Source: a virus
Reading direction: 5' to 3' (one strand)
DNA: 16,995 nucleotides
UHGV virus genome: UHGV-1578124
A program made the position numbers and the translations under genes. The notes beneath the pieces are model-generated. The model did not search any database. It saw only the letters and a list, made by a program, of their open reading frames with translations, and had not been told where the DNA came from. Shown here in pieces: positions 1 to 16,878 of this stretch. Each line of letters opens with the position of its first letter. Position 1 is the first letter of the stretch.

Positions 1-50
1 ATCAAATCAACTAATATATAAGCCCATAACCCGAAAGGGAAGGGCAATCC

Positions 51-90
51 CTAAAACGCTCTATAACGCTCTATAACGCTCTATAACGGC
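51..90. repeat. four tandem 10-bp units CTA(A/T)AACG(C/G)(T/C)
   Basis: Read directly: ctaaaacgct ctataacgct ctataacgct ctataacggc, head to tail with 10-bp period. Confidence 0.75.
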
Positions 91-259
91 TTATCAACTC
101 AACTTAAGCAATCATATTAACCCACTCTTAAAAGCCCTTTATAGAGCTTACTATAGCCTTAAAAGAATCTTATAAGGGTATAAGCTTTATCATCTCGTTA
201 GTTATCTTGTGAACTACTAAAAAGGGCTTGATAGTGTCTATTAAGTATGTTATATGGGC

Positions 260-299
260 TATAAAGTTACGTAAAAGGAGTTATAAAGTTACGTAAAAG
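260..299. repeat. 18-bp direct repeat TATAAAGTTACGTAAAAG x2, each with the 8-bp palindrome TTACGTAA
   Basis: Identical copies at 260-277 and 282-299 (22-bp period); TTACGTAA is self-complementary. Confidence 0.75.
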
Positions 300-365
300 C
301 TAGCCCCCTTAACATTTCTTTAACAAAATCTTAACAATCCCTACATAGTTATGCTTATTAGCAAC

Positions 366-415
366 TTGTTAGCACCTTGTTAAATCTCTGTTAAGACTAC
401 GTTACAACCTTGTTA
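366..415. repeat. phased array of five (T/C)TGTTA-type hexamers at 11-bp spacing
   Basis: Hexamers start at 366, 377, 388, 399 (ACGTTA variant) and 410. Confidence 0.6.
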
Positions 416-608
416 GGCTCTTTGAAGTCCCTATATAAGCCCCTGTAAAGGTCTATAAAGAGCTATACAGACAGTTGGGGTATAGATACTGGGAAGAACC
501 TTAGAAGAGGCTACATAGAGCTATACAGGGCTTTTAAGAGGGCTGTTTAGAGAATCACTGAGAAAGGTAGGGAACTATAGACCAAGAGATAGTGACCATG
601 TTAATAGA

Positions 609-818
609 TTGTTAAACATGTTGAGAACTTAATAGACACTTGTTAATAATCTTAACAAAATAACTTTTAAATTTAACATGTTAGGGACTTGTTAGCATCT
701 TGTTATACCCTTGTAAGAACTGTTAAACTCTTGTTACATCCTTGTTAGAACTGTTAAGGGATTGTTAAGAACTATGGAGACTTGTTAGAGACTTGTTAGA
801 GTTGTAAAGAAATTGTTA
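609..818. repeat. helically phased array of at least 14 (T/C)TGTTA(R) hexamers, 9-11 bp apart
   Basis: Starts at 609, 619, 640, then 678, 689, 700, 711, 720, 731, 742, 751, 762, 782, 793, 802, 813 (TTGTTA, CTGTTA or TTGTAA variants). Confidence 0.7.
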
Positions 819-1416
819 ATGATATTTTAAGATTTTGCAAAGGGGATGTTACAGAGCTGTTAAGGGCTACCAAGCAGATATACACCCTTTGTAGATATTT
901 TTCAGATACTCCCAAGAACCTAAAAAGTGACCTACCTAGTCTATTTTATAAAAATTTTATAGAACTGAATAACTATCTATACACTATCTTCTATAAAACA
1001 GGTAATAACAGGCTTATAAGATATCTTGTTAGTAACGTGTTAGACCTTGTAGGATAAGCCTTTACAGGGAATACCTGTTTAGTGCTATATAACAGTCTAT
1101 ATAGAGGCTTAGTTGACCCTAGTGAACCATCTATAGAGGGTATCATCCTTAACATAGAGATTAAGATGGATATAGGGGCTTCTAAGGGGCTATGGAGGAG
1201 CTAGGAAGGTAATTGTATAGGTGTGGAAGAGGGCTTGTTAGAGAGCTTTATAGAGGGCTATTTAGAAGGAGCTATATAGTTTCACTAGATAGGGACTAAG
1301 AGGCTATATAGATACTATATAATACTATATAGAGAGTATGCTTAGATAGGTTGTTGAAGAGGGTATTGATATTTTATCACATGATATGGTGACCCAAGAT
1401 GAACGGAGTGAATCCA

Positions 1417-1453
1417 AATTTTATAAAAATTATAAAGCCCCAATTAAGGGGCT
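1417..1453 (-). terminator. intrinsic terminator for the minus-strand operon ending at 1463
   Basis: Hairpin AGCCCC (1436-1441) / GGGGCT (1448-1453), loop AATTAA; on the minus strand it is followed by a U-rich tract (plus 1417-1435 is A/T-rich). Confidence 0.55.
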
Positions 1454-1462
1454 GTGTAGTCC

Positions 1463-2134
1463 TTAGCAAAGGTTCTCTATAACAGCCTGAATAGCTGGTG
1501 TAGTTGTGTGAAAGAAGTGAGTGTCTCCGTTATGTGATTCTCGTATCTGTAACATGATAGCGTGACCCTTGATAGGGAAGCATTGAATGTGATAACGATT
1601 CCCGTTAAACACTGAACCAAACCCTGTACAGAAACTTTCCAAGTCAGCTTTAGAAAGAAACTCTTCTTTCCCTGTGATTTTTATACAGACACCTCTATTA
1701 ACTCGTGAAGGGTTTATATCTTCTGCAAAGAGCATCTGTTGACCACCTAAAGAGGCCATAGAGATTTCTTTACGGTTCTGCTGCTTAACATACATCTCAA
1801 GCTTCTTCAAAGTCTCTTCATAGAACGGATAAGATTTATTCACAAAGATACCTTCAAGTGGCTCTTTACCTGAGTCTTCTCGTTCCATCTTAAGTCGATT
1901 AACAAGTAATTCTAAAGACCACTTCTCACTTTCATCAAGATATGTATTGATATCATCTAGACTCAGTACCAGATACTTTCTTTCAAGTTCAAACTTTTTC
2001 ATCTCTACCAAATCCTTAAAACATTTCTTAGTAACTGCTTCCCATTCTTCGGAGTTCTTCCGCTTCCTCTTCAGATGGGGAACCATATCTGTTAAGTTCT
2101 TCCAACTCTTCTTCAGTAGGTGTCCCATAATCAC
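1463..2134 (-). CDS. hypothetical protein (223 aa)
   Basis: Long ORF. The annotated start is GTG overlapping the upstream stop; an ATG two codons in (2126-2128) is an alternative. Confidence 0.6.
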   Translation of the reverse strand: MIMGHLLKKSWKNLTDMVPHLKRKRKNSEEWEAVTKKCFKDLVEMKKFELERKYLVLSLDDINTYLDESEKWSLELLVNRLKMEREDSGKEPLEGIFVNKSYPFYEETLKKLEMYVKQQNRKEISMASLGGQQMLFAEDINPSRVNRGVCIKITGKEEFLSKADLESFCTGFGSVFNGNRYHIQCFPIKGHAIMLQIRESHNGDTHFFHTTTPAIQAVIENLC

Positions 2135-9081: not shown

Positions 9082-9308
9082 TTACCTGTTCTCCTGCGGT
9101 TAATAATCTTGCTGCAATAGAGAAATGAAGCAAATTCACTGGAAGAAACCATTAACACTTGTTCACTAGATTGAGCGATAGCTCTGAAATACATACCAGT
9201 TAAAGCATCATAGTGCTTATTCTTACCAATCGAAGCTATATACCCATGACTCTTTGCAGTTTGGTACAAATCAATAATATCTGTGATTTCTAATTGGGAG
9301 CTACACAT
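9075..9308 (-). CDS. hypothetical protein (77 aa), first gene of the minus-strand block
   Basis: ATG with AGAGGA 5 nt upstream; lies next to the divergent intergenic region. Confidence 0.55.
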   Translation of the reverse strand: MCSSQLEITDIIDLYQTAKSHGYIASIGKNKHYDALTGMYFRAIAQSSEQVLMVSSSEFASFLYCSKIINRRRTGKC

Positions 9309-9550
9309 AAGTAATCCTCTTGTCGTCTATAATTTTGAAAATATAGGTACAAACCAATTTCAGAGGATGTATAGTGGATTGCTTCCACACGTTTTGATTC
9401 CTTACAGTGATTGGTATTATTACCCTTTTTCTTCTTTGTTAGTTTTCTCATTTAGTCTCCTTTGTAGATAAAGCAGACCTACAGCTTTAAGTAAGATGGT
9501 ACAGTAATCCATACAACAAGTCAAGAACTATTGCAACCTAAAAATTTTAC

Positions 9551-9653
9551 TTGACAAGGGGATTGACAAGATGTAGTGTAATAAAACACTTAGAAGATAA
9601 CTTAAAAGACTCTTCTAAAAAGGCTATTTAAACAGATATCTTTCTGGATATCT
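9551..9653. promoter_or_regulatory. divergent control region with tandem TTGACA hexamers and a GATATC-containing inverted repeat
   Basis: TTGACA at 9551-9556 and 9563-9568; inverted repeat AGATATC (9634-9640) / GATATCT (9647-9653); sits between the minus-strand block and the plus-strand gene at 9703. Confidence 0.4.
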
Positions 9654-9702
9654 ATCTCTTATCTTAAAAGCCTTTTAAGAAGTCTTCATAGTAGGAGGTT
9701 GA

Positions 9703-10074
9703 ATGACCAAAAGAACAAACAAAGGCCAGTTTAAAAAAGGTCAATCTGGTAACCCTTCTGGGAGACCAAAAGGTTCACGTAACAAGAGTTCTCTTGTAAA
9801 AGCTCAACTAACCATTGACAACTCAGCAGAGTTTGCTGCAAAGTTATTTGAAGCAATTGTTACAAGGGATGCTACAAAGCTGGCAGAGTTTGGACTCAAG
9901 CCTGATGAAGTCAATTTGAAGTCGATGATGGAAGCTGGTAAAACTATCATGACTCACTCAGCAGGTGAGATGAAAGCAATTGCAGCAGATGTTAAAGGTG
10001 GTGGTGAAAAGGGTGGAGAGAAACCACAAGACAACAAACCAACGTTCTCTGCTGTAGCAACTCTGAAGAAATAA
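9703..10074 (+). CDS. phage protein with N-terminal GQSGNPSGRPKG motif
   Basis: GGAGG 6 nt upstream of ATG; the basic glycine-rich motif is one I associate with a conserved phage protein family (recalled as DUF5681), not verified. Confidence 0.7.
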   Translation: MTKRTNKGQFKKGQSGNPSGRPKGSRNKSSLVKAQLTIDNSAEFAAKLFEAIVTRDATKLAEFGLKPDEVNLKSMMEAGKTIMTHSAGEMKAIAADVKGGGEKGGEKPQDNKPTFSAVATLKK

Positions 10075-11733: not shown

Positions 11734-11813
11734 CTCCGTTTAGCTCAGTTTGGTTTAGCAGCACTTGCTTTGGGAGCAAGGGGTCGAGGGTTCAAATCCT
11801 TCAACGGAGACCA
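11734..11813 (+). tRNA. tRNA-Pro (anticodon TGG)
   Basis: Acceptor CTCCGTT/AACGGAG; anticodon stem CTTGC/GCAAG, loop TTTGGGA; T-arm GAGGG-TTCAAAT-CCTTC; discriminator A; CCA encoded. Confidence 0.85.
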
Positions 11814-11819
11814 AATTAT

Positions 11820-11897
11820 GTTCCAGTAGACAAATTGGTAAAGTCACCACACTTTCAATGTGGAGTTTTGAGGGTTCAAGTCCCTTCTGGAACGCCA
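11820..11897 (+). tRNA. tRNA-Glu (anticodon TTC)
   Basis: Acceptor GTTCCAG/CTGGAAC; anticodon stem CCACA/TGTGG, loop CTTTCAA; T-loop TTCAAGT; discriminator G; CCA encoded. Confidence 0.8.
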
Positions 11898-11901
11898 AAT
11901 T

Positions 11902-11974
11902 TGACAGAAGACCAAATACAGCAAACAACTTTTACTTTTCGCGCATAGAAAACATAAAAAGCTTGGTCTGGTCA
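11902..11974 (+). ncRNA. structured spacer element E1 (bulged two-helix family)
   Basis: Outer helix TGAC (11902-05) / GTCA (11971-74); inner helix AGACCAA (11909-15) / TTGGTCT (11963-69); unpaired AGA opposite G. Confidence 0.55.
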
Positions 11975-11982
11975 TTAAGAAT

Positions 11983-12059
11983 CGCGGGTATAGAGAAAGG
12001 GCGTCTCACATGTCTCATTAGCATGGCAACGGTTGGTTCGACTCCAACACCCGCCTCCA
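11983..12059 (+). tRNA. tRNA with CAT anticodon (Met, Ile2 or initiator)
   Basis: Acceptor CGCGGGT/ACCCGCC with C1-C72 mismatch; D-stem GAGA/TCTC; anticodon stem CATGT/GCATG, loop CTCATTA; T-arm GTTGG-TTCGACT-CCAAC; discriminator U; CCA encoded. Confidence 0.65.
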
Positions 12060-12062
12060 AAT

Positions 12063-12130
12063 TTACAGAAGGCCGTTTACAGCAATTCAAACAATTTTAT
12101 CGGAAAATTAAAATGAATACGGTCTGGTAA
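12063..12130 (+). ncRNA. structured spacer element E2
   Basis: Outer TTAC (12063-66) / GTAA (12127-30); inner AGGCCGT (12070-76) / ACGGTCT (12119-25) with one G-U pair; AGA opposite G. Confidence 0.55.
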
Positions 12131-12140
12131 TGTTAAACAT

Positions 12141-12217
12141 GGTTAGGAAGCACATAAGGCATGTGCGGTCGGCTGTTAACCGAATGGCACAGGGTTCGAA
12201 TCCCTGACTAACCGCCA
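12141..12217 (+). tRNA. tRNA-Asn (anticodon GTT)
   Basis: Acceptor GGTTAGG/ACTAACC; D-stem GCAC/GTGC; anticodon loop CTGTTAA; T-arm CAGGG-TTCGAAT-CCCTG; discriminator G; CCA. Confidence 0.8.
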
Positions 12218-12284
12218 AATTTGGGAGAGAAGCGATTGCTCACCGATTTGTAAGGTGCAAGTCCTTAGCCTGAATAGAATAAAA

Positions 12285-12373
12285 TGCGTCGTTATCCCGT
12301 AGATGGAAGCGGTGGTGACTGTAAATCACTTGTCATTACGACTCGGTAGGTTCGACTCCTTCACGGCGCACCA
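12285..12373 (+). tRNA. tRNA-Tyr (anticodon GTA), type II
   Basis: Acceptor GCGTCGT/ACGGCGC; anticodon stem GGTGA/TCACT, loop CTGTAAA; long variable arm with GTC/GAC stem; T-loop TTCGACT; discriminator A; CCA. Confidence 0.8.
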
Positions 12374-12379
12374 AATAAA

Positions 12380-12456
12380 GGTTATGTAGTTTAACTGGTC
12401 AAAATACTCCCCTGTCACGGGAGATGATGAGGGTTCGAATCCCTTCGTAACCGCCA
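12380..12456 (+). tRNA. tRNA-Asp (anticodon GTC)
   Basis: Acceptor GGTTATG/CGTAACC; anticodon stem CTCCC/GGGAG, loop CTGTCAC; T-arm GAGGG-TTCGAAT-CCCTT; discriminator G; CCA. Confidence 0.85.
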
Positions 12457-12514
12457 AATTTGAGAGGGCTTTTTAGCCCCTCCCTTAAAGAGTTCTTTCG
12501 AGTATTCTTTAAAG

Positions 12515-12594
12515 GAGCAGAAGACCAAATTCAGCAAGCAACAAAAATATTTCAAGCCAATTTAATTTGAAAAATTTAAAACTTGGTCTGGTTC
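12515..12594 (+). ncRNA. structured spacer element E3
   Basis: Outer GAGC (12515-18) / GTTC (12591-94) with one G-U; inner AGACCAA (12522-28) / TTGGTCT (12583-89); AGA opposite G. Confidence 0.5.
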
Positions 12595-12602
12595 CAACAA
12601 TT

Positions 12603-12734
12603 TTACAGAAGACCGTTTACAGCAAACAATAAACAATCTATTTCTCTTATAAAGAAAAGGCGAAGGTTCGAATCCTTCACACGTTACGGCGTGTTGGTGT
12701 AATGGAAGCACTTAAGATAAATACGGTCTGGTAA
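12603..12734 (+). ncRNA. structured spacer element E4 with internal tRNA-like module
   Basis: Outer TTAC (12603-06) / GTAA (12731-34); inner AGACCGT (12610-16) / ACGGTCT (12723-29). Apical region 12662-12711 holds a canonical T-arm, an ACACG/CGTGT hairpin and a D-arm-like GTG-TAATGGAAG-CAC. Confidence 0.55.
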
Positions 12735-12738
12735 TCCT

Positions 12739-12871
12739 CTTTGCAGTGACTTATGGAGCTAATATGTCGTCCCATGAGTGCCGATGAGTTTCTTGAGCAT
12801 GATTCTAGATTAGCTTACTAAGAGACAACTCTACAAACCCTTTAGCAAGGTTTGCGTAGGTTACTGCAAAG
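12739..12871 (+). ncRNA. candidate structured RNA closed by a long-range helix
   Basis: CTTTGCAGTGAC (12739-50) pairs with GTTACTGCAAAG (12860-71). Interior holds two overlapping mini-ORFs (12764-12787 MSSHECR, 12784-12813 MSFLSMILD), the first with GGAG 6 nt upstream. Confidence 0.35.
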
Positions 12872-12881
12872 ATGATTTAAT

Positions 12882-12957
12882 GGAAGTGTAGCAGAATGGT
12901 GATGCGGCAGACTTTTAATCTGACAGGCGACGGGTTCGAATCCCTCCACTTCTACCA
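12882..12957 (+). tRNA. tRNA-Lys (anticodon TTT)
   Basis: Acceptor GGAAGTG/CACTTCT; anticodon stem CAGA/TCTG, loop CTTTTAA; weak T-arm (GACGG...CCCTC); discriminator A; CCA. Confidence 0.7.
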
Positions 12958-12962
12958 AATTC

Positions 12963-13029
12963 GCCCTTAACTGAAGAACACATGCGCGGCTGGAGACACC
13001 CACTCAATCAGTTCTTCTACAAAGGGCAA
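12963..13029 (+). ncRNA. large imperfect hairpin
   Basis: GCCCTT + GAAGAAC (12963-79) pair with GTTCTTC + AAGGGC (13011-29) around a 4x4 internal loop; ~31-nt apical loop; no U-tract follows. Confidence 0.4.
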
Positions 13030-13037
13030 CTTATTAC

Positions 13038-13114
13038 GGTTCAGTCGCAGATAAGGTAATGCAAGGGTTTCATAAGCCCTATGAATGTGGGTTCGATTCC
13101 CACTTGAACCTCCA
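13038..13114 (+). tRNA. tRNA-Met (anticodon CAT; could be Ile2 or initiator)
   Basis: Acceptor GGTTCAG/TTGAACC; anticodon stem AGGGT/GCCCT, loop TTCATAA; T-arm GTGGG-TTCGATT-CCCAC; discriminator U; CCA. Confidence 0.75.
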
Positions 13115-13116
13115 AT

Positions 13117-13191
13117 TGTGGGTTAGCATAAATGGTAATGCAAACGGCTGATAACCGTTAGAAGAGGGTTCGATACCCTCACCTACAACCA
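13117..13191 (+). tRNA. tRNA-Ile (anticodon GAT)
   Basis: Acceptor TGTGGGT/ACCTACA; D-stem GCAT/ATGC; anticodon stem AACGG/CCGTT, loop CTGATAA; T-arm GAGGG-TTCGATA-CCCTC; discriminator A; CCA. Confidence 0.8.
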
Positions 13192-13206
13192 AATTCAATA
13201 AAGTTG

Positions 13207-13235
13207 TTGATATTGAGATGTGACTACTTTATAGT
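13207..13235 (+). promoter_or_regulatory. sigma70-like promoter TTGATA-17-TATAGT
   Basis: Hexamers at 13207-13212 and 13230-13235; would drive the ~200-nt non-tRNA segment before tRNA-Arg(TCT). Confidence 0.5.
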
Positions 13236-13241
13236 AACCTT

Positions 13242-13403
13242 AGTTTTCGTTAGCGTAGCGTCTATTTTGCAAACTTAAAAATAAATGCAAACGATAATGT
13301 TTTTCTGGCAGTAGCTTAATAGGCTAAACACCAGTGAGGTCTTCCAACCCCTCATCAAAGAATTTGGCGTACTAGCCCACGGTATGATTAATAAGGTGGG
13401 CAT
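13242..13403 (+). ncRNA. candidate small RNA / transcribed spacer
   Basis: Lies downstream of the 13207 promoter; hairpins TAGC/GCTA (13312-26), TGAGG/CCTCA (13334-53), GCCCAC/GTGGGC (13375-13401); no tRNA fold and no ORF. Confidence 0.3.
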
Positions 13404-13440
13404 CTTTAAGGGCTTTCTAAGAGAGTCTTTAAAGATTAAT

Positions 13441-13517
13441 GCACCCTTAGTTCAATTGGATAGAGCAACGGTCTTCTAAATCGTTAGTTACAGGTTCGAA
13501 TCCTGTAGGGTGTGCCA
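13441..13517 (+). tRNA. tRNA-Arg (anticodon TCT)
   Basis: Acceptor GCACCCT/AGGGTGT; D-stem GTTC/GAGC; anticodon stem ACGGT/ATCGT, loop CTTCTAA; T-arm ACAGG-TTCGAAT-CCTGT; discriminator G; CCA. Confidence 0.85.
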
Positions 13518-13618
13518 ATTAGTTAGCAGATTACTTAGACGACCTTAGCGGGTCTTCCTGTAGGGAGGTGGTCTGTATCTCATGTTTTCCAGAACATGTA
13601 AATAATCTGAGAAGGGGC

Positions 13619-13647
13619 TTGACAGTGTTGTGATAATACGGTAAGCT
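13619..13647 (+). promoter_or_regulatory. sigma70-like promoter TTGACA-17-TAAGCT
   Basis: Hexamers at 13619-13624 and 13642-13647; the block TTGACAgTGTTGTGATA...TAAG matches the 11587 element. Confidence 0.45.
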
Positions 13648-13659
13648 TCGAATTATAGT

Positions 13660-13742
13660 ATGGGACGATGTTAAGACACTAAGGCATGTGCGTAAGCCTC
13701 CAAAACTTACTCAAAGGGGTTCGATTCCTCCGTCCCATGCCA
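13660..13742 (+). tRNA. tRNA-Trp (anticodon CCA), atypical 80 nt
   Basis: Acceptor ATGGGAC/GTCCCAT (perfect); anticodon loop CTCCAAA; T-loop TTCGATT; discriminator G; CCA. There are about 7 extra nt between the acceptor stem and the D-arm. Confidence 0.6.
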
Positions 13743-13755
13743 AAGTCTCATTAGG

Positions 13756-13843
13756 GGTAGGTAGCGGCTAATGGTAGCCAAACTGTCTTGAAAACAGTTG
13801 CCACTGTAGAGATACGGTGAGGGTTCGACTCCTTTACTTACCG
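13756..13843 (+). tRNA. tRNA-Ser (anticodon TGA), type II
   Basis: Acceptor GGTAGGT/ACTTACC; anticodon stem ACTGT/ACAGT, loop CTTGAAA; variable-arm hairpin CTGTA-GAGA-TACGG; T-loop TTCGACT; discriminator G; 3' tail reads CCT, not CCA. Confidence 0.75.
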
Positions 13844-13923
13844 CCTAATAAGATTTAATTCCCGCGCTCGTCGAACAAGCTCGGTTTTTACTCGTGTATT
13901 GGCGTACACGGCACGACTATAAA

Positions 13924-13938
13924 ACACCTAGTAGGTGT
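13924..13938. promoter_or_regulatory. 15-bp palindrome ACACCTA-g-TAGGTGT (candidate protein-binding site)
   Basis: Perfect 7-bp inverted arms around a central G, in the 250-nt tRNA-free spacer 13847-14093. Confidence 0.4.
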
Positions 13939-14093
13939 CACGGAGAAGAGATAGTATCAAGCTCTCCAAAGGTTCTAGTCACCGGATTGAATAAGACTAT
14001 ATAAAGACTGTTTAGGTCTTTTTAGAGAATTGCTGAGGCATTTGATACCATTGTTGCTTTGGCGTCTTAGCAGTTCTCTACAAAGATTTAATG

Positions 14094-14171
14094 GGAGATT
14101 GACGGTAATTGGTAAACCTACCATCCTTAGAAGTTGGTGTTTGAGGGTTCGAATCCCTTGTCTCCTACCAA
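14094..14171 (+). tRNA. tRNA with anticodon TAG (Leu codon CUA), type I
   Basis: Acceptor GGGAGAT/GTCTCCT (G-U pairs at both ends); anticodon stem CCATC/GTTGG, loop CTTAGAA; T-arm GAGGG-TTCGAAT-CCCTT; discriminator A; CCA; no long variable arm. Confidence 0.6.
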
Positions 14172-14178
14172 ATTAATG

Positions 14179-14254
14179 CAGGTGTAGCAAAATGGTTATG
14201 CGGCTGACTCTTAATCAGTAAGACGATGGGTTCAATTCCCTCCACCTGTACCAA
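14179..14254 (+). tRNA. tRNA-Lys (anticodon CTT)
   Basis: Acceptor GCAGGTG/CACCTGT; anticodon stem GCTGA/TCAGT, loop CTCTTAA; same weak T-arm as Lys(TTT); discriminator A; CCA. Confidence 0.7.
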
Positions 14255-14260
14255 ATATCG

Positions 14261-14336
14261 GGGATGTAGTTTACATGGTTAAAACATAAGTTTTGCAAAC
14301 TTAAGTACAGGGTTCAATTCCCTGCTTCTCCACCAA
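14261..14336 (+). tRNA. tRNA-Ala (anticodon TGC)
   Basis: Acceptor GGGGATG/CTTCTCC with a G3-U70 wobble (the known Ala identity pair); D-stem GTTT/AAAC; anticodon stem TAAGT/ACTTA, loop TTTGCAA; T-arm CAGGG-TTCAATT-CCCTG; discriminator A; CCA. Confidence 0.85.
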
Positions 14337-14342
14337 TTAGTG

Positions 14343-14417
14343 CATCCATAGTTTAAACGGGAAAATTACAGTCTTCCAAACTGAGGTTGAGGGTTCGATT
14401 CCCTCTGGATGCTCCAA
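14343..14417 (+). tRNA. tRNA-Gly (anticodon TCC)
   Basis: Acceptor GCATCCA/TGGATGC (perfect); anticodon loop CTTCCAA; T-arm GAGGG-TTCGATT-CCCTC; discriminator U (as in Gly tRNAs); CCA. Confidence 0.85.
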
Positions 14418-14423
14418 ATAATG

Positions 14424-14500
14424 CTGCTTTCGTATAATTGGCTATTACACATCCCTTGTAAGGATGGAGATGCGGGTTCAAGTCCTGTGAGCAGCACCAA
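14424..14500 (+). tRNA. tRNA-Thr (anticodon TGT)
   Basis: Acceptor GCTGCTT/GAGCAGC; anticodon stem CATCC/GGATG, loop CTTGTAA; T-loop TTCAAGT; discriminator A; CCA. Confidence 0.8.
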
Positions 14501-14504
14501 TTTG

Positions 14505-14588
14505 AGGTCAAGTGAAAGGCCGCTTGAGTCAACTGAGACCGTAGCAAATTCCACGGAGTTGAGTTAGCGGCACAACTTCAGACCTCTT
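14505..14588 (+). ncRNA. nested-helix structured element between tRNA-Thr and tRNA-Val
   Basis: Closing helix GAGGTC (14505-10) / GACCTC (14583-88), second helix GCCGC/GCGGC, internal direct repeat TTGAGT x2; followed by a CTTTTAAAG motif. Confidence 0.4.
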
Positions 14589-14594
14589 TTAAAG

Positions 14595-14669
14595 CTCGCT
14601 TAGTTTATACGGTAAAGCCCCATCCTTACAAGTTGGTGAAGAAGGTTCAAGTCCTTCAGCGAGTACCAA
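14595..14669 (+). tRNA. tRNA-Val (anticodon TAC)
   Basis: Acceptor GCTCGCT/AGCGAGT; D-stem GTTT/AAGC; anticodon stem CCATC/GTTGG, loop CTTACAA; T-arm GAAGG-TTCAAGT-CCTTC; discriminator A; CCA. Confidence 0.8.
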
Positions 14670-14670
14670 G

Positions 14671-14748
14671 TTCCAGTATCCCAATTGGCAGAGGATGCAA
14701 GCTCAAACCTTGTATTAGTGACGGTTCGAATCCGTCTTGGAACACCAA
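14671..14748 (+). tRNA. tRNA with anticodon CAA (Leu codon UUG), type I
   Basis: Acceptor GTTCCAG/TTGGAAC; anticodon stem GCAAG/CTTGT, loop CTCAAAC; T-arm GACGG-TTCGAAT-CCGTC; discriminator A; CCA; 75 nt. Confidence 0.6.
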
Positions 14749-14762
14749 ATTAGGAGATTCCT

Positions 14763-14975
14763 ATGAAGCCTTATGGTAGACATGGTAAAGTTGAAATTGC
14801 AAGTTGTGGTTGCTGTGCTTCTCACGATGGTGAAGAAGATTACTACAAGTGGCGTACAGACCATCGTAGACGCTTTCTCAGAAGAGATAAGAAGAAAGCT
14901 AGACAGGAATCTCAAAAGAATATTGCAGAATTAGTTCAAACGGATAGAGCAGCAGCCTACGAAGTTGTTTGTTAG
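14763..14975 (+). CDS. small basic cysteine-containing protein (70 aa)
   Basis: AGGAG 5 nt upstream of ATG; contains C-G-C-C; its last ~17 codons run through the 5' two-thirds of tRNA-Arg(ACG), so the true 3' end is uncertain. Confidence 0.45.
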   Translation: MKPYGRHGKVEIASCGCCASHDGEEDYYKWRTDHRRRFLRRDKKKARQESQKNIAELVQTDRAAAYEVVC

Positions 14976-15001
14976 GGGTTCGAATCCCTTATTCTGCACC
15001 A
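14925..15001 (+). tRNA. tRNA-Arg (anticodon ACG)
   Basis: Acceptor GCAGAAT/ATTCTGC (perfect); D-stem GTTC/GAGC; anticodon stem GCAGC/GTTGT, loop CTACGAA; T-arm AGGGG-TTCGAAT-CCCTT; discriminator A; CCA. Confidence 0.85.
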
Positions 15002-15019
15002 ATTTTAGAAGGTAATTAT

Positions 15020-15247
15020 ATGCGTAAACTCATTATTGAAAGGCATAAAGATGCTGACAAGATTGCAACAACACAAGTTGGGGACACTGACTTCATTCTT
15101 GTAGGTTGGAAATGTGACCCAATAGCAGTTATGAAGGTTGTTCATGGTTTTGCAGGAATTGAATTTAATCAAATCATATTTGAAACGCTATTACCAGAAA
15201 ATCAGGATACGTGTAATAACGCATATGTCCTGACAAGAGTTCGTTAG
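15020..15247 (+). CDS. small protein (75 aa), paralog of 15292-15519
   Basis: AGAAGG ~7 nt upstream of ATG (MRKLIIERH...); the track ORF starts earlier inside the tRNA. Shares blocks with the next gene (GDT-FI-VGWK-DP, FAG-E, QVIFET-LPEN-DTCNNAY-LTRV). Confidence 0.65.
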   Translation: MRKLIIERHKDADKIATTQVGDTDFILVGWKCDPIAVMKVVHGFAGIEFNQIIFETLLPENQDTCNNAYVLTRVR

Positions 15248-15273
15248 GGGTTCGAATCCCTTATTCTGCACCA
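15244..15273 (+). pseudogene. tRNA 3' fragment (T-arm + acceptor 3' strand + CCA)
   Basis: A 31-nt stretch (GTTAGGGGTTCGAATCCCTTATTCTGCACCA, from 15243) is identical to the 3' end of tRNA-Arg(ACG) at 14971-15001; no matching 5' acceptor strand, D-arm or anticodon arm upstream. Confidence 0.65.
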
Positions 15274-15291
15274 AATTTAAAAGGGTAACTT

Positions 15292-15519
15292 ATGTTTAAA
15301 CTCATAGTTGAAAAACACCCAGAAGATGACAAGCTTGAAACAGGGAGATTTGGAGATACTTTCTTTATCAGAGTTGGCTGGAAAGCTGACCCATTAGAAG
15401 TTAGAAAGATTGTCTACAACTTTGCTGGTTTGGAATTAAAGCAAGTCATCTTTGAAACAATGTTGCCAGAAAATAAAGATACATGCAATAACGCATATAT
15501 TCTTACAAGAGTTAGTTAG
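15292..15519 (+). CDS. small protein (75 aa), paralog of 15020-15247
   Basis: AAAGGG upstream of ATG; stop codon TAG (15517-19) overlaps the first nucleotides of tRNA-Gln(TTG). Confidence 0.65.
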   Translation: MFKLIVEKHPEDDKLETGRFGDTFFIRVGWKADPLEVRKIVYNFAGLELKQVIFETMLPENKDTCNNAYILTRVS

Positions 15520-15593
15520 GGGATTAGTTTACAAGGTTAAAACCTCGGTCTTTGAAATCGAAGAAGTTGGTTCAATTCCAACATCCCCCGCCA
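15518..15593 (+). tRNA. tRNA-Gln (anticodon TTG)
   Basis: Acceptor AGGGGAT/ATCCCCC with unpaired 1-72; D-stem GTTT/AAAC; anticodon stem TCGGT/ATCGA, loop CTTTGAA; T-arm GTTGG-TTCAATT-CCAAC; discriminator G; CCA. Confidence 0.75.
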
Positions 15594-15595
15594 AT

Positions 15596-15674
15596 GCTCC
15601 ATTACTCCAATTGGCAGAGAGGCCAGACTTAAAATCTGTGTTATGTATCGGTTCGAATCCGATATGGAGTACCA
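15596..15674 (+). tRNA. tRNA with anticodon TAA (Leu codon UUA), type I
   Basis: Acceptor GCTCCAT/ATGGAGT; anticodon stem CAGA/TCTG, loop CTTAAAA; T-arm ATCGG-TTCGAAT-CCGAT; discriminator A; CCA; 76 nt with a 7-nt variable region. Confidence 0.6.
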
Positions 15675-15680
15675 AATATT

Positions 15681-15756
15681 AGCAGTGTAGCATAACTGGC
15701 AATGCTCCAGCCTCTGAAGCTGAAAGATTAAGGTTCAAATCCTTACGCTGCTGCCA
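15681..15756 (+). tRNA. tRNA-Gln (anticodon CTG)
   Basis: Acceptor AGCAGTG/CGCTGCT; D-stem GCAT/ATGC; anticodon loop CTCTGAA; T-arm TAAGG-TTCAAAT-CCTTA; discriminator G; CCA. Confidence 0.75.
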
Positions 15757-15787
15757 CTTCTAAGGGTTCTTACGAGAGTCCTTAAAT

Positions 15788-15864
15788 GTGGCCTTATCAT
15801 AAACGGATAATGACCCATGCTGTGAACATGGTCTATACGGGTTCGATTCCCGTAGGTCACCCCA
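15788..15864 (+). tRNA. tRNA-His (anticodon GTG)
   Basis: Acceptor GTGGCCT/AGGTCAC; D-stem TCAT/ATGA; anticodon stem CCATG/CATGG, loop CTGTGAA; T-arm ACGGG-TTCGATT-CCCGT; discriminator C; CCA. Position -1 is T, not the usual encoded G. Confidence 0.8.
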
Positions 15865-15871
15865 ATTCAAT

Positions 15872-15947
15872 AGCTCAATTAGCTTATATGGTTAAAGCGC
15901 GTGTCTGAAAAACATGAGAACAGGGTTCAAATCCCGATGGGCTACCA
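15872..15947 (+). tRNA. tRNA-Phe (anticodon GAA)
   Basis: Acceptor AGCTCAA/ATGGGCT; anticodon stem CGTGT/ACATG, loop CTGAAAA; T-loop TTCAAAT with a weak 3-4 bp T-stem; discriminator A; CCA. Confidence 0.65.
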
Positions 15948-15963
15948 ATTTTATAGGTGCATA

Positions 15964-16698
15964 ATGAAAGAGATGACAGGACAAGGTAAAGAGATTTTCA
16001 GTCTCCTTAAATCCGGTAACGGGTTCTCTAACCCTCTTATTACTGGTGCAGCAGTTCTTGGTGGTACAGTTGCCGCTTCTCAGTCATTAGTAACTTCTAT
16101 TGGTTCTGTATCAGACCCAGCTACCCAGCAAATTCTTATTGCTGCTGGCTTGACAACTGCCTTACTAAGCAGCTTTACAACAAGCCTTGGTAGCACCACT
16201 TCAACGACAACCACTTTAACTGACTATGGACAGAAGTCTGTAGATGAGTTTTCACAACGTATGCAAGTAGCTAAAGGTTACTCTAACGTTATGGGAGCAG
16301 CAGGTGAACAAGTCGGTTGTACACCGTTTAGTGGAATCATGGGAGTTGCTACAGAGTACGGTAACAAAGCTATGGATTTGATTAATACATCCATAGACGC
16401 TGTAAATGGCGTTCTAAGCGATTTACAAGATGCGATTGATAAAGGACTAGACACCATCTCTGAACTCGCTACACAGGCTGTTACAGTGATTAATGAGGGT
16501 ATGGCAAAGATTACCGCCTACGCTAATGAAGTGGCTCAGATGATTGCAGATGAAGCAGCCCTGATTGCTGACTACCTTAAAACGAATATTAATGGTTTTC
16601 TTGCTAATGTCTTACCAGATTGGTTTGATGATGCTTGTAAAACTGGTGTGATTGATACAATCGCAACTCCAGAGATGAAAGATGCTCTAAACAAATAA
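15964..16698 (+). CDS. hypothetical Ser/Thr/Ala/Gly-rich protein (244 aa)
   Basis: The track ORF starts at 15901 inside tRNA-Phe. First ATG after the tRNA (MKEMTGQ...) has AGGTG 4 nt upstream. Confidence 0.6.
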   Translation: MKEMTGQGKEIFSLLKSGNGFSNPLITGAAVLGGTVAASQSLVTSIGSVSDPATQQILIAAGLTTALLSSFTTSLGSTTSTTTTLTDYGQKSVDEFSQRMQVAKGYSNVMGAAGEQVGCTPFSGIMGVATEYGNKAMDLINTSIDAVNGVLSDLQDAIDKGLDTISELATQAVTVINEGMAKITAYANEVAQMIADEAALIADYLKTNINGFLANVLPDWFDDACKTGVIDTIATPEMKDALNK

Positions 16699-16701
16699 TT
16701 T

Positions 16702-16794
16702 GGAAGATTAACCCTAAAAGGTAAGGGAGTAGTTTGCTAAACTGCCAGTAACCGAGAAATCGGCGTACCAGTTCAAGTCTGGTATCTTCCTCCA
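16702..16794 (+). tRNA. tRNA-Ser (anticodon GCT), type II
   Basis: Acceptor GGAAGAT/ATCTTCC (perfect); D-stem CCC/GGG; anticodon stem GTAGT/ACTGC, loop TTGCTAA; variable-arm hairpin CCGA-GAAA-TCGG; T-arm ACCAG-TTCAAGT-CTGGT; discriminator U; CCA. Confidence 0.8.
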
Positions 16795-16801
16795 AATTAA
16801 T

Positions 16802-16878
16802 GTGTCGGTGGCAGAAATGGATTATGCGCCTGTCTGCAAAACAGGTATATAAGGGTTCAAGTCCCTTCCGATACTCCA
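16802..16878 (+). tRNA. tRNA-Cys (anticodon GCA)
   Basis: Acceptor GTGTCGG/CCGATAC; anticodon stem CCTGT/ACAGG, loop CTGCAAA; T-arm AAGGG-TTCAAGT-CCCTT; discriminator U (as in Cys tRNAs); CCA. Confidence 0.8.

Follow-up and report, generated by a model that had tools for sequence, protein, structure and literature searches.

The first 1,462 positions of a 16,995-nt stretch of viral DNA (virus genome UHGV-1578124; 'the window' below means this whole stretch) are very probably the genome-end, or concatemer-junction, region of a Felix O1-like phage, with positions 303-871 predicted to be an exact short direct terminal repeat (DTR). This reading starts from direct observations of homology to real phage termini, of shared repeat edges, of conservation, and of the statistics and phasing of a short box, TGTTA, that recurs through the repeat. 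DTRs as a class are already known in these phages, having been mapped experimentally in a relative and annotated in GenBank; their internal architecture, about 25 helically phased and conserved TGTTA boxes running from edge to edge, is apparently undescribed, and we found no description of it in the accounts of Felix O1-like DTRs that we read, which give length or sequence only. The source of the window is a phage of the genus Mooglevirus (Ounavirinae), a Felix O1-like myophage whose best matches are the Shigella phages ESh21 (97% identical) and ESh22, and homologues of region 1-1462 occur in about 275 phage records of the collection searched.

Placement of the predicted terminal repeat

In the linear record of the Citrobacter phage HP1 each end is annotated as a 570-bp repeat_region, and the first nucleotide of HP1 corresponds to window position 303. 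Direct comparison of record ends gave exact repeats, in which the prefix of the record equals its suffix, of 570 bp in HP1, 581 bp in I14.1 and 651 bp in NBEco005. All three repeats begin at CTA/GCCCCCTTAACA and end at TGTTAAGGGCTACC/AAGCAGATATACA (a slash marks the edge), and the window has these same left and right edges at 303 and 871. Each edge motif is single-copy in the window and in all 11 junction sequences compared. This comparison, like the alignment used throughout, covered 11 genomes from three genera (Felixounavirus, Mooglevirus and Suspvirus), the window included. The two longest invariant blocks of the alignment straddle exactly the two DTR edges, and AAGCAGATATACA is kept at the right edge in the Erwinia phage phiEa104 as well.

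Published work on relatives points the same way. A DTR of 608 bp was determined for UAB_Phi87 by Bal31 digestion and run-off sequencing (PMC4837284), and its published sequence maps to window positions 311-873. PhageTerm gave a 581-bp DTR for Pr103Blw (PMC8303462) and DTRs for a set of Philippine coliphages that includes I14.1 (PMC11737134), while Felix O1 itself has been inferred to carry short terminal repeats (PMC3185647). The gene for the large terminase subunit, TerL, lies beyond the right end of the window (position 17432 in HP1), and TerL of relatives has been assigned to the Felix O1 DTR clade (PMC4837284). Together, the homology to record ends, the relative mapped by run-off sequencing and the invariant edge blocks place the predicted DTR at 303-871. 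The original prediction had offered a genome-end or packaging role among its candidates, and this option is supported by the record-end repeats and the mapped UAB_Phi87 DTR, both of which are orthologous to 303-871.

The setting of the repeat is also shared. The same non-coding gap of about 1.4-1.7 kb, with convergent gene blocks on either side, is present in Felixounavirus, Mooglevirus, Suspvirus, Kolesnikvirus (Erwinia phages) and the Pectobacterium phage Arno18, and in all five groups it lies between the rightward early-gene block and the leftward operon. In the source phage the gap reaches about 130 nt beyond the left end of the window: in ESh21 the last plus-strand coding sequence (CDS) stops 130 nt short of position 1, with a terminator hairpin of its own behind it; the whole gap is therefore about 1.6 kb long and lies between convergent, terminated operons. 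The ESh21 hairpin was missed by the consensus terminator scan. Both bracketing operons end in near-identical hairpins, AGCCCCTTAATTGGGGCT at window positions 1436-1453 and AGCCCCTTAAATGGGGCT in ESh21 (locus L001, 4912-4929), and the first of these bears out the earlier description of the region as lying 3' of a minus-strand operon and its terminator. Region 1-1462 is 80-83% conserved overall. The adjoining gene at 1463-2134 has a column identity of only 0.36 among relatives, compared with about 0.8 for the non-coding DNA next to it.

The GenBank records of these phages differ in how their ends are presented. Those of UAB_Phi87 and Felix O1 were opened at positions other than this junction. I14.1 (PP892526.1; L008/L009) is filed under Tequintavirus though its sequence is Felix O1-like, and NBEco005 (MN994499.1; L010/L011) is flagged as circular yet has the 651-bp exact repeat at both record ends. 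A 'DTR' of phage KMM2, whose record starts at the equivalent of window position 798, was rejected as an assembly overlap flagged by a completeness tool and not a true terminus.

Several points weigh against the assignment of 303-871 as a DTR or are left over by it. The repeat of the source phage is placed by orthology, and the closest relative with annotated ends, HP1, is only about 85-87% identical in this region. The edges taken from sequencing-derived records differ from the UAB_Phi87 run-off data by 8 nt on the left and 2 nt on the right. About 870 nt of conserved flanking DNA outside the DTR are unaccounted for by a terminal-repeat model, and the CTATA-type boxes in these flanks have no conservation footprint (0.83 vs 0.81, p = 0.35). 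Finally, neither a small terminase subunit nor any other DNA-binding protein was recognized, and PHROGs and Pfam gave no function for the proteins encoded next to the region.

Phased TGTTA boxes within the repeat

The DTR contains 20 forward and five reverse TGTTA boxes, where shuffled sequences lead to an expectation of 1.5 ± 1.2 forward boxes; for the whole of region 1-1462 the forward count is 24, against 2.5 ± 1.6 expected. The box consensus is CTTGTTA(A/G)(A/G). Successive boxes are most often 11 nt apart, this being the spacing in 13 of 23 steps between the 24 forward boxes of the region and in 10 of 19 steps inside the DTR, and otherwise mostly 9, 20, 22, 31 or 33 nt apart. The mixture of 11-nt steps with steps of 9 and 20 nt keeps the boxes in helical register for nearly 500 bp: taken together they fit a period of 10.3-10.4 bp best, and the resultant R is 0.77-0.80, compared with a 99th percentile of 0.69 for random placements, and the right array taken separately has a period of 10.3 bp and an R of 0.80.

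The boxes are conserved beyond the DNA around them. Columns of the box core are 95.5% conserved, compared with 79.7% for other DTR columns (permutation p < 0.0002), and this footprint takes in just the 5-bp core and position +1. Of the whole 89-kb genome of HP1, only the two DTRs hold dense box clusters. The Erwinia phage phiEa104, though otherwise diverged in this region, shares the TGTTAA arrays. The outermost boxes point outward at both ends, so that the ends of the DTR form an imperfect terminal inverted repeat, with 306-325 and 847-866 being 85% complementary. The box-free core between the two forward arrays varies in length among relatives, which accounts for the range of DTR sizes from 570 to 651 bp.

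A possible packaging mechanism

In replicating concatemers, or in a circularized assembly, one copy of 303-871 would lie between the ends of the rightward early-gene block and the leftward operon, and in the virion a copy would be present at both ends. The terminase most likely recognizes this junction and cuts or nicks it at the invariant edge blocks, at 302/303 and 871/872, with an uncertainty of about 8 nt, and packaging would then produce the second copy of the repeat in the manner of T7-type DTR phages; it is by analogy with those phages that this manner of cutting and duplication appears most likely. The approximately 25 boxes, which share one face of the helix, most likely nucleate a scaffold of cooperatively bound protein on DNA. 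Direct repeats of a 5-bp core placed once per turn on a single face have the geometry of head-to-tail winged-helix binders. A putative winged-helix protein bound head to tail, once per helical turn, would mark the junction and position the cuts, with the outermost boxes pointing outward to the termini. We infer two kinds of candidate for the binder: a phage protein, such as an unrecognized small terminase subunit, or ArcA-P of the host, the phosphorylated form of the oxygen-response regulator ArcA.

Known systems share parts of this design. The DTRs of the Felix O1-like phages UAB_Phi87, Pr103Blw and HP1 have orthologous sequence, identical edge motifs, the same TGTTA arrays and the same gap of about 1.5 kb between convergent operons; nothing essential differs, the window copy being 569 bp long and those of relatives 570-651 bp by virtue of the box-free core. 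T7/SP6-type DTRs are similarly short (hundreds of base pairs), exact and non-permuted, with a non-coding junction flanked by arrays of short repeats, and DTR packaging is predicted by TerL-based classification in both cases (PMC4837284). However, the source phage is an unrelated myovirus without a phage RNA polymerase, its DTR is three to four times longer than that of T7 and consists largely of one phased 5-bp box, and its processing can be likened to that of T7 by analogy only.

Multi-box terminase sites include the R-sites of lambda cosB with the integration host factor (IHF), the hexamer repeats of P1 pac, and pacL/pacR of SPP1. At these sites the cleavage position is flanked by short repeated boxes, helical phasing or bending plays a part, and a host architectural protein can contribute; the predicted DTR differs from them in having many more boxes (about 25) and two candidate cut sites separated by 569 bp. 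In plasmid centromere and iteron arrays, such as the 11-bp iterons of R1 parC, tandem 11-bp units likewise put protein on one face of the helix. The source phage differs in being lytic, with no partition genes nearby, and in having an array that is coextensive with a terminal repeat.

Resemblance of the boxes to host ArcA-P sites

An alternative that concerns the arrays only, and is compatible with a terminal repeat at 303-871, is that the TGTTA arrays are predicted binding sites for ArcA-P of the host, and serve no phage protein or not a phage protein alone. We regard this as a tentative possibility. Binding sites for ArcA-P have a TGTTA core in direct repeats with a centre-to-centre spacing of 11 bp (or 22 bp) and two to five repeats per site (PMC3798270, PMC4173790), and the boxes of the DTR equal this definition in core, spacing and orientation, with well over the minimum of two repeats. 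The likeness extends to the scores of an information matrix built from 115 E. coli ArcA boxes defined by chromatin immunoprecipitation (ChIP), on which real sites range from 9.6 to 21.5 bits with a median of 15.7. Within the DTR, fifteen 18-mers score at least 10 bits and seven at least 14 bits; the top scores are 23.4, 21.0, 20.5 and 20.5 bits, so that DTR scores reach those of real sites and the best exceeds every one of them. The two best scores at the left end (23.4 and 20.5 bits) are given by the reverse boxes at 309-337. The density of matches is 26/kb in the DTR but only 0.7/kb over the remainder of the window and 0.59/kb over that of the HP1 genome, and the 15 observed matches compare with averages of 0.71 for shuffled DTRs and 0.77 for column-permuted matrices. 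Pairs of half-sites peak at spacings of 11, 20 and 22 nt.

The pattern of conservation also favours ArcA-P as a binder. All 11 genomes keep the high scores, as do the Erwinia phage and the Pectobacterium phage Arno18, the latter with matrix matches in its gap; the TGTTA boxes stay constant while flank motifs vary by genus, and the conserved footprint does not extend past the core and position +1. No ArcA homologue was detected in HP1 (phmmer gave no significant match to a provisional ArcA query sequence).

Details of the boxes and the biology of the phages argue in the other direction. Real ArcA sites prefer A/T at -2, A/C at +1 and an A/T-rich spacer. The best boxes follow these preferences, but a C stands at position -2 in 52% of boxes and a G at +1 in 28%, whereas each is seen in 3-4% of real sites, and many of the spacers are rich in G+C. 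Chromosomal ArcA sites consist of two to five repeats at promoters, whereas here about 25 predicted sites fill a promoter-less phage terminal repeat. The phages plaque aerobically, when ArcA-P is low, and ArcA binding therefore cannot be essential. Moreover, 11-nt TGTTA arrays are present in many unrelated environmental viral contigs, which argues that this geometry is generic for once-per-turn binders, and a literature search for Felix O1 together with arcA found no paper linking the two.

The contigs in question came from a scan of IMG/VR for four TGTTA boxes at 11-nt spacing, which returned at least 120 loci; most among the matches listed were perfect 11-nt tandem repeats in unrelated contigs. 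Imperfect 11-nt arrays were seen in contigs L094, L095, L100 and L123, and in L094 they occupy both contig ends in inverted orientation (14055-14092 and 14-51). For three non-Felix loci whose arrays were imperfect, megablast against the phage collection gave no match. The scan neither supports nor refutes ArcA-P as the binder.

If ArcA-P does bind, it may act as an architectural factor at genome ends (like IHF at lambda cosB), as a redox sensor, or through a titration sponge in which the hundreds of DTR copies made during infection would sequester it. A regulatory hub, also among the candidates of the original prediction, may in this way involve a host factor, given the likeness of the arrays to ArcA boxes. 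The broader proposition that Felix O1-like terminal repeats are built of a super-array of about 25 predicted ArcA-P boxes, conserved across phage genera of Escherichia, Salmonella, Shigella, Citrobacter, Erwinia and Pectobacterium, is one that we would put forward with more doubt than conviction.

Improbable roles as origin of replication or in DNA entry

The original prediction had also suggested an origin, and the phased repeats could in principle be iterons for a phage initiator, with the region being or containing a replication origin. Iteron-like arrays, AT-rich invariant blocks at 941-959 and 1418-1437 and strongly conserved non-coding DNA are all in keeping with this, but no DnaA box (with up to one mismatch allowed) and no IHF site was found in 1-1462, and the neighbouring genes include no initiator-like member. 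The replication genes of HP1 lie 40-60 kb away around a divergent intergenic region, and the arrays fill the terminal repeat exactly, from edge to edge. The whole-genome skew analysis that had been suggested as a check was run on the relative HP1, where turning points of GC and AT skew coincide only with changes in the direction of transcription. We thus consider an origin improbable.

A role of the repeat-rich DNA in DNA entry, either as a signal that pauses injection or as a site that protects the ends from exonuclease, is similarly hard to favour. Such a role would suit the position of the repeats immediately at both genome ends and the density of direct and inverted repeats, and the repeats may resemble the stop-signal region of first-step transfer in T5. 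However, two-step injection is not known for Felix O1-like phages and the DTR contains no pre-early genes; the sequence itself offers nothing that separates this role from one in packaging.

Non-coding status of the region

The absence of open reading frames (ORFs) of 60 codons or more on either strand of 1-1462, as first reported from the sequence, was reproduced, the longest ORF being 54 aa. For DNA with 35% G+C this is unremarkable, as 81% of first-order Markov and 39% of mononucleotide shuffles also lacked an ORF of at least 60 aa. The better evidence comes from related genomes, where stops, frameshifts or the loss of a start codon interrupt each of the six short ORFs tested; on this comparison the region is truly non-coding, and a reading of the small ORFs as genes was rejected. 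Short hypothetical CDSs are annotated in the homologous gap or DTR of ESh21 (L001, 5786-6407), UAB_Phi87 (L012, 1472-2259) and I14.1 (L008, 1033-1170). The three CDSs of ESh21 match tested window ORFs that are not conserved, and are therefore probably spurious calls.

It is very unlikely that 1-1462 specifies small proteins missed by annotation or a non-coding RNA: short CDSs in some GenBank records and the high nucleotide conservation speak for this, but none of the six tested ORFs stays open across relatives, an Rfam search of the region gave no match at E <= 1, promoter-like sites are at chance level (8 vs 5.2 ± 2.6), and terminators on both sides insulate the region. A known RNA family and a promoter cluster were discarded as candidates on the same Rfam result and promoter count.

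Features of the region and its surroundings

The elements of the region are collected in Table 1. The repeats described earlier were recovered at slightly adjusted positions: a dispersed repeat reported at about 460 and 515 corresponds to GAGCTATACAG, found at 460 and 518 only; a cluster reported at 1270-1330 corresponds to CTATATAG at 1272, 1304 and 1325, with a further copy at 1097; and two blocks given as related, at 481-510 and 900-930, are 79% identical over 484-507 and 904-927.

Table 1. Elements in and next to region 1-1462, in window coordinates (a slash marks a predicted DTR edge; a point means that no strand applies)
Position	Strand	Element	Basis or remarks
1-302	.	Left flank, conserved and non-coding; would lie just inside the right-hand DTR copy in the virion; contains CTATAACGCT x3.8 (51-88), an invariant 22-nt block (158-179) and AAAGTTACGTAAAAG x2 (263-299), which abuts the DTR edge	Mean column identity 0.82, 11 genomes
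300-317	.	Invariant 18-nt block over the left DTR edge, CTA/GCCCCCTTAACATTT; candidate site of cutting or nicking by terminase	No variation (100% identity) among 11 genomes, 3 genera
303-871	+	Predicted DTR, 569 bp	Orthology to record-end repeats of relatives
309-337	-	Three reverse TGTTA boxes at 310, 321 and 332, 11 nt apart, facing the left terminus	Box scan
354-420	+	Left forward array; CTTGTTA(A/G) boxes at 367, 378, 389 and 411 with a degenerate box at 400	Box scan
424-598	.	Box-free DTR core; GAGCTATACAG x2 (460, 518) and block 484-507, akin to 904-927	
599-871	+	Right forward array; 16 TGTTA boxes at 599-858, spacings 11, 9, 20, 31 and 33 nt	Array stops at the right terminus
858-884	.	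Invariant 27-nt block over the right DTR edge, TGTTAAGGGCTACC/AAGCAGATATACA, longest of the region; candidate cut or nick site	11-genome alignment
872-1435	.	Right flank, conserved and non-coding; in the virion it would follow the left-hand DTR copy on its inner side; features are block 904-927, an AT-rich 19-mer without variation (941-959), an array of 12-nt repeats (1228-1279) and the CTATATAG cluster (1272-1332)	Mean column identity 0.81
1436-1453	-	Intrinsic terminator of the minus-strand operon	AGCCCCTTAATTGGGGCT hairpin, then a run of T
1463-2134	-	Last gene of the minus-strand operon, 223 aa, no assigned function	phrog_4330; bounds the non-coding region

The two flanks are as conserved as the DTR itself and hold repeat families of their own, with CTCTATAACG x3 and AAGTTACGTAAAA x2 in the left flank and GCTATATAG(AG) with the 12-nt array in the right flank, in opposite orientation in the two flanks. 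CTATA occurs 19 times in region 1-1462, against 5.8 ± 2.3 expected from shuffles; boxes of this type were rejected as a second protein-binding family, being over-represented yet showing no conservation footprint. In phiEa104 the left junction flank (L016, 608-1170) contains a dense (C)TTCTAA(A/G)C array with a period of about 11-12 nt where the window has CTCTATAACG. This indicates that flank repeats differ between genera, with the TGTTA boxes remaining constant.

Further to the right, ARAGORN detected 25 tRNA genes on the plus strand (11734-16878), a cluster that explains the apparent ORF-free stretch at about 12130-14353. A tandem duplication of 272 nt (14967-15522) consists of two copies that are 75% identical; each begins within the 3' end of a tRNA and includes one small ORF, at 14969-15247 (92 aa) and 15292-15519 (75 aa). 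The divergent intergenic region between the minus- and plus-strand blocks (9308-9703), with small tandem repeats at 9604-9657, is the counterpart of the 40-41 intergenic promoter region that has been discussed in Felix O1.

Implications

Many of the approximately 275 GenBank records of this family were opened arbitrarily, and several annotate short, probably spurious CDSs in the region. The invariant edge blocks CTA/GCCCCCTTAACATTT and TGTTAAGGGCTACC/AAGCAGATATACA let the true ends be placed from the sequence of a genome alone, which is useful for annotation, for phage engineering and for quality control of therapeutic phages. The scaffold of phased and conserved TGTTA boxes, with boxes pointing outward at both termini, provides a concrete model of concatemer recognition and cutting that can be tested by mutation. 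Should ArcA-P prove to bind these boxes, a host regulator of anaerobic and redox responses would have been recruited to the ends of a phage genome, where it may assist end formation and packaging as an architectural cofactor, or be titrated by a sponge that rewires host respiration during infection in the gut. With ArcA as the binder, these phages would present an unusual link between the redox state of the host and the maturation of the phage genome.

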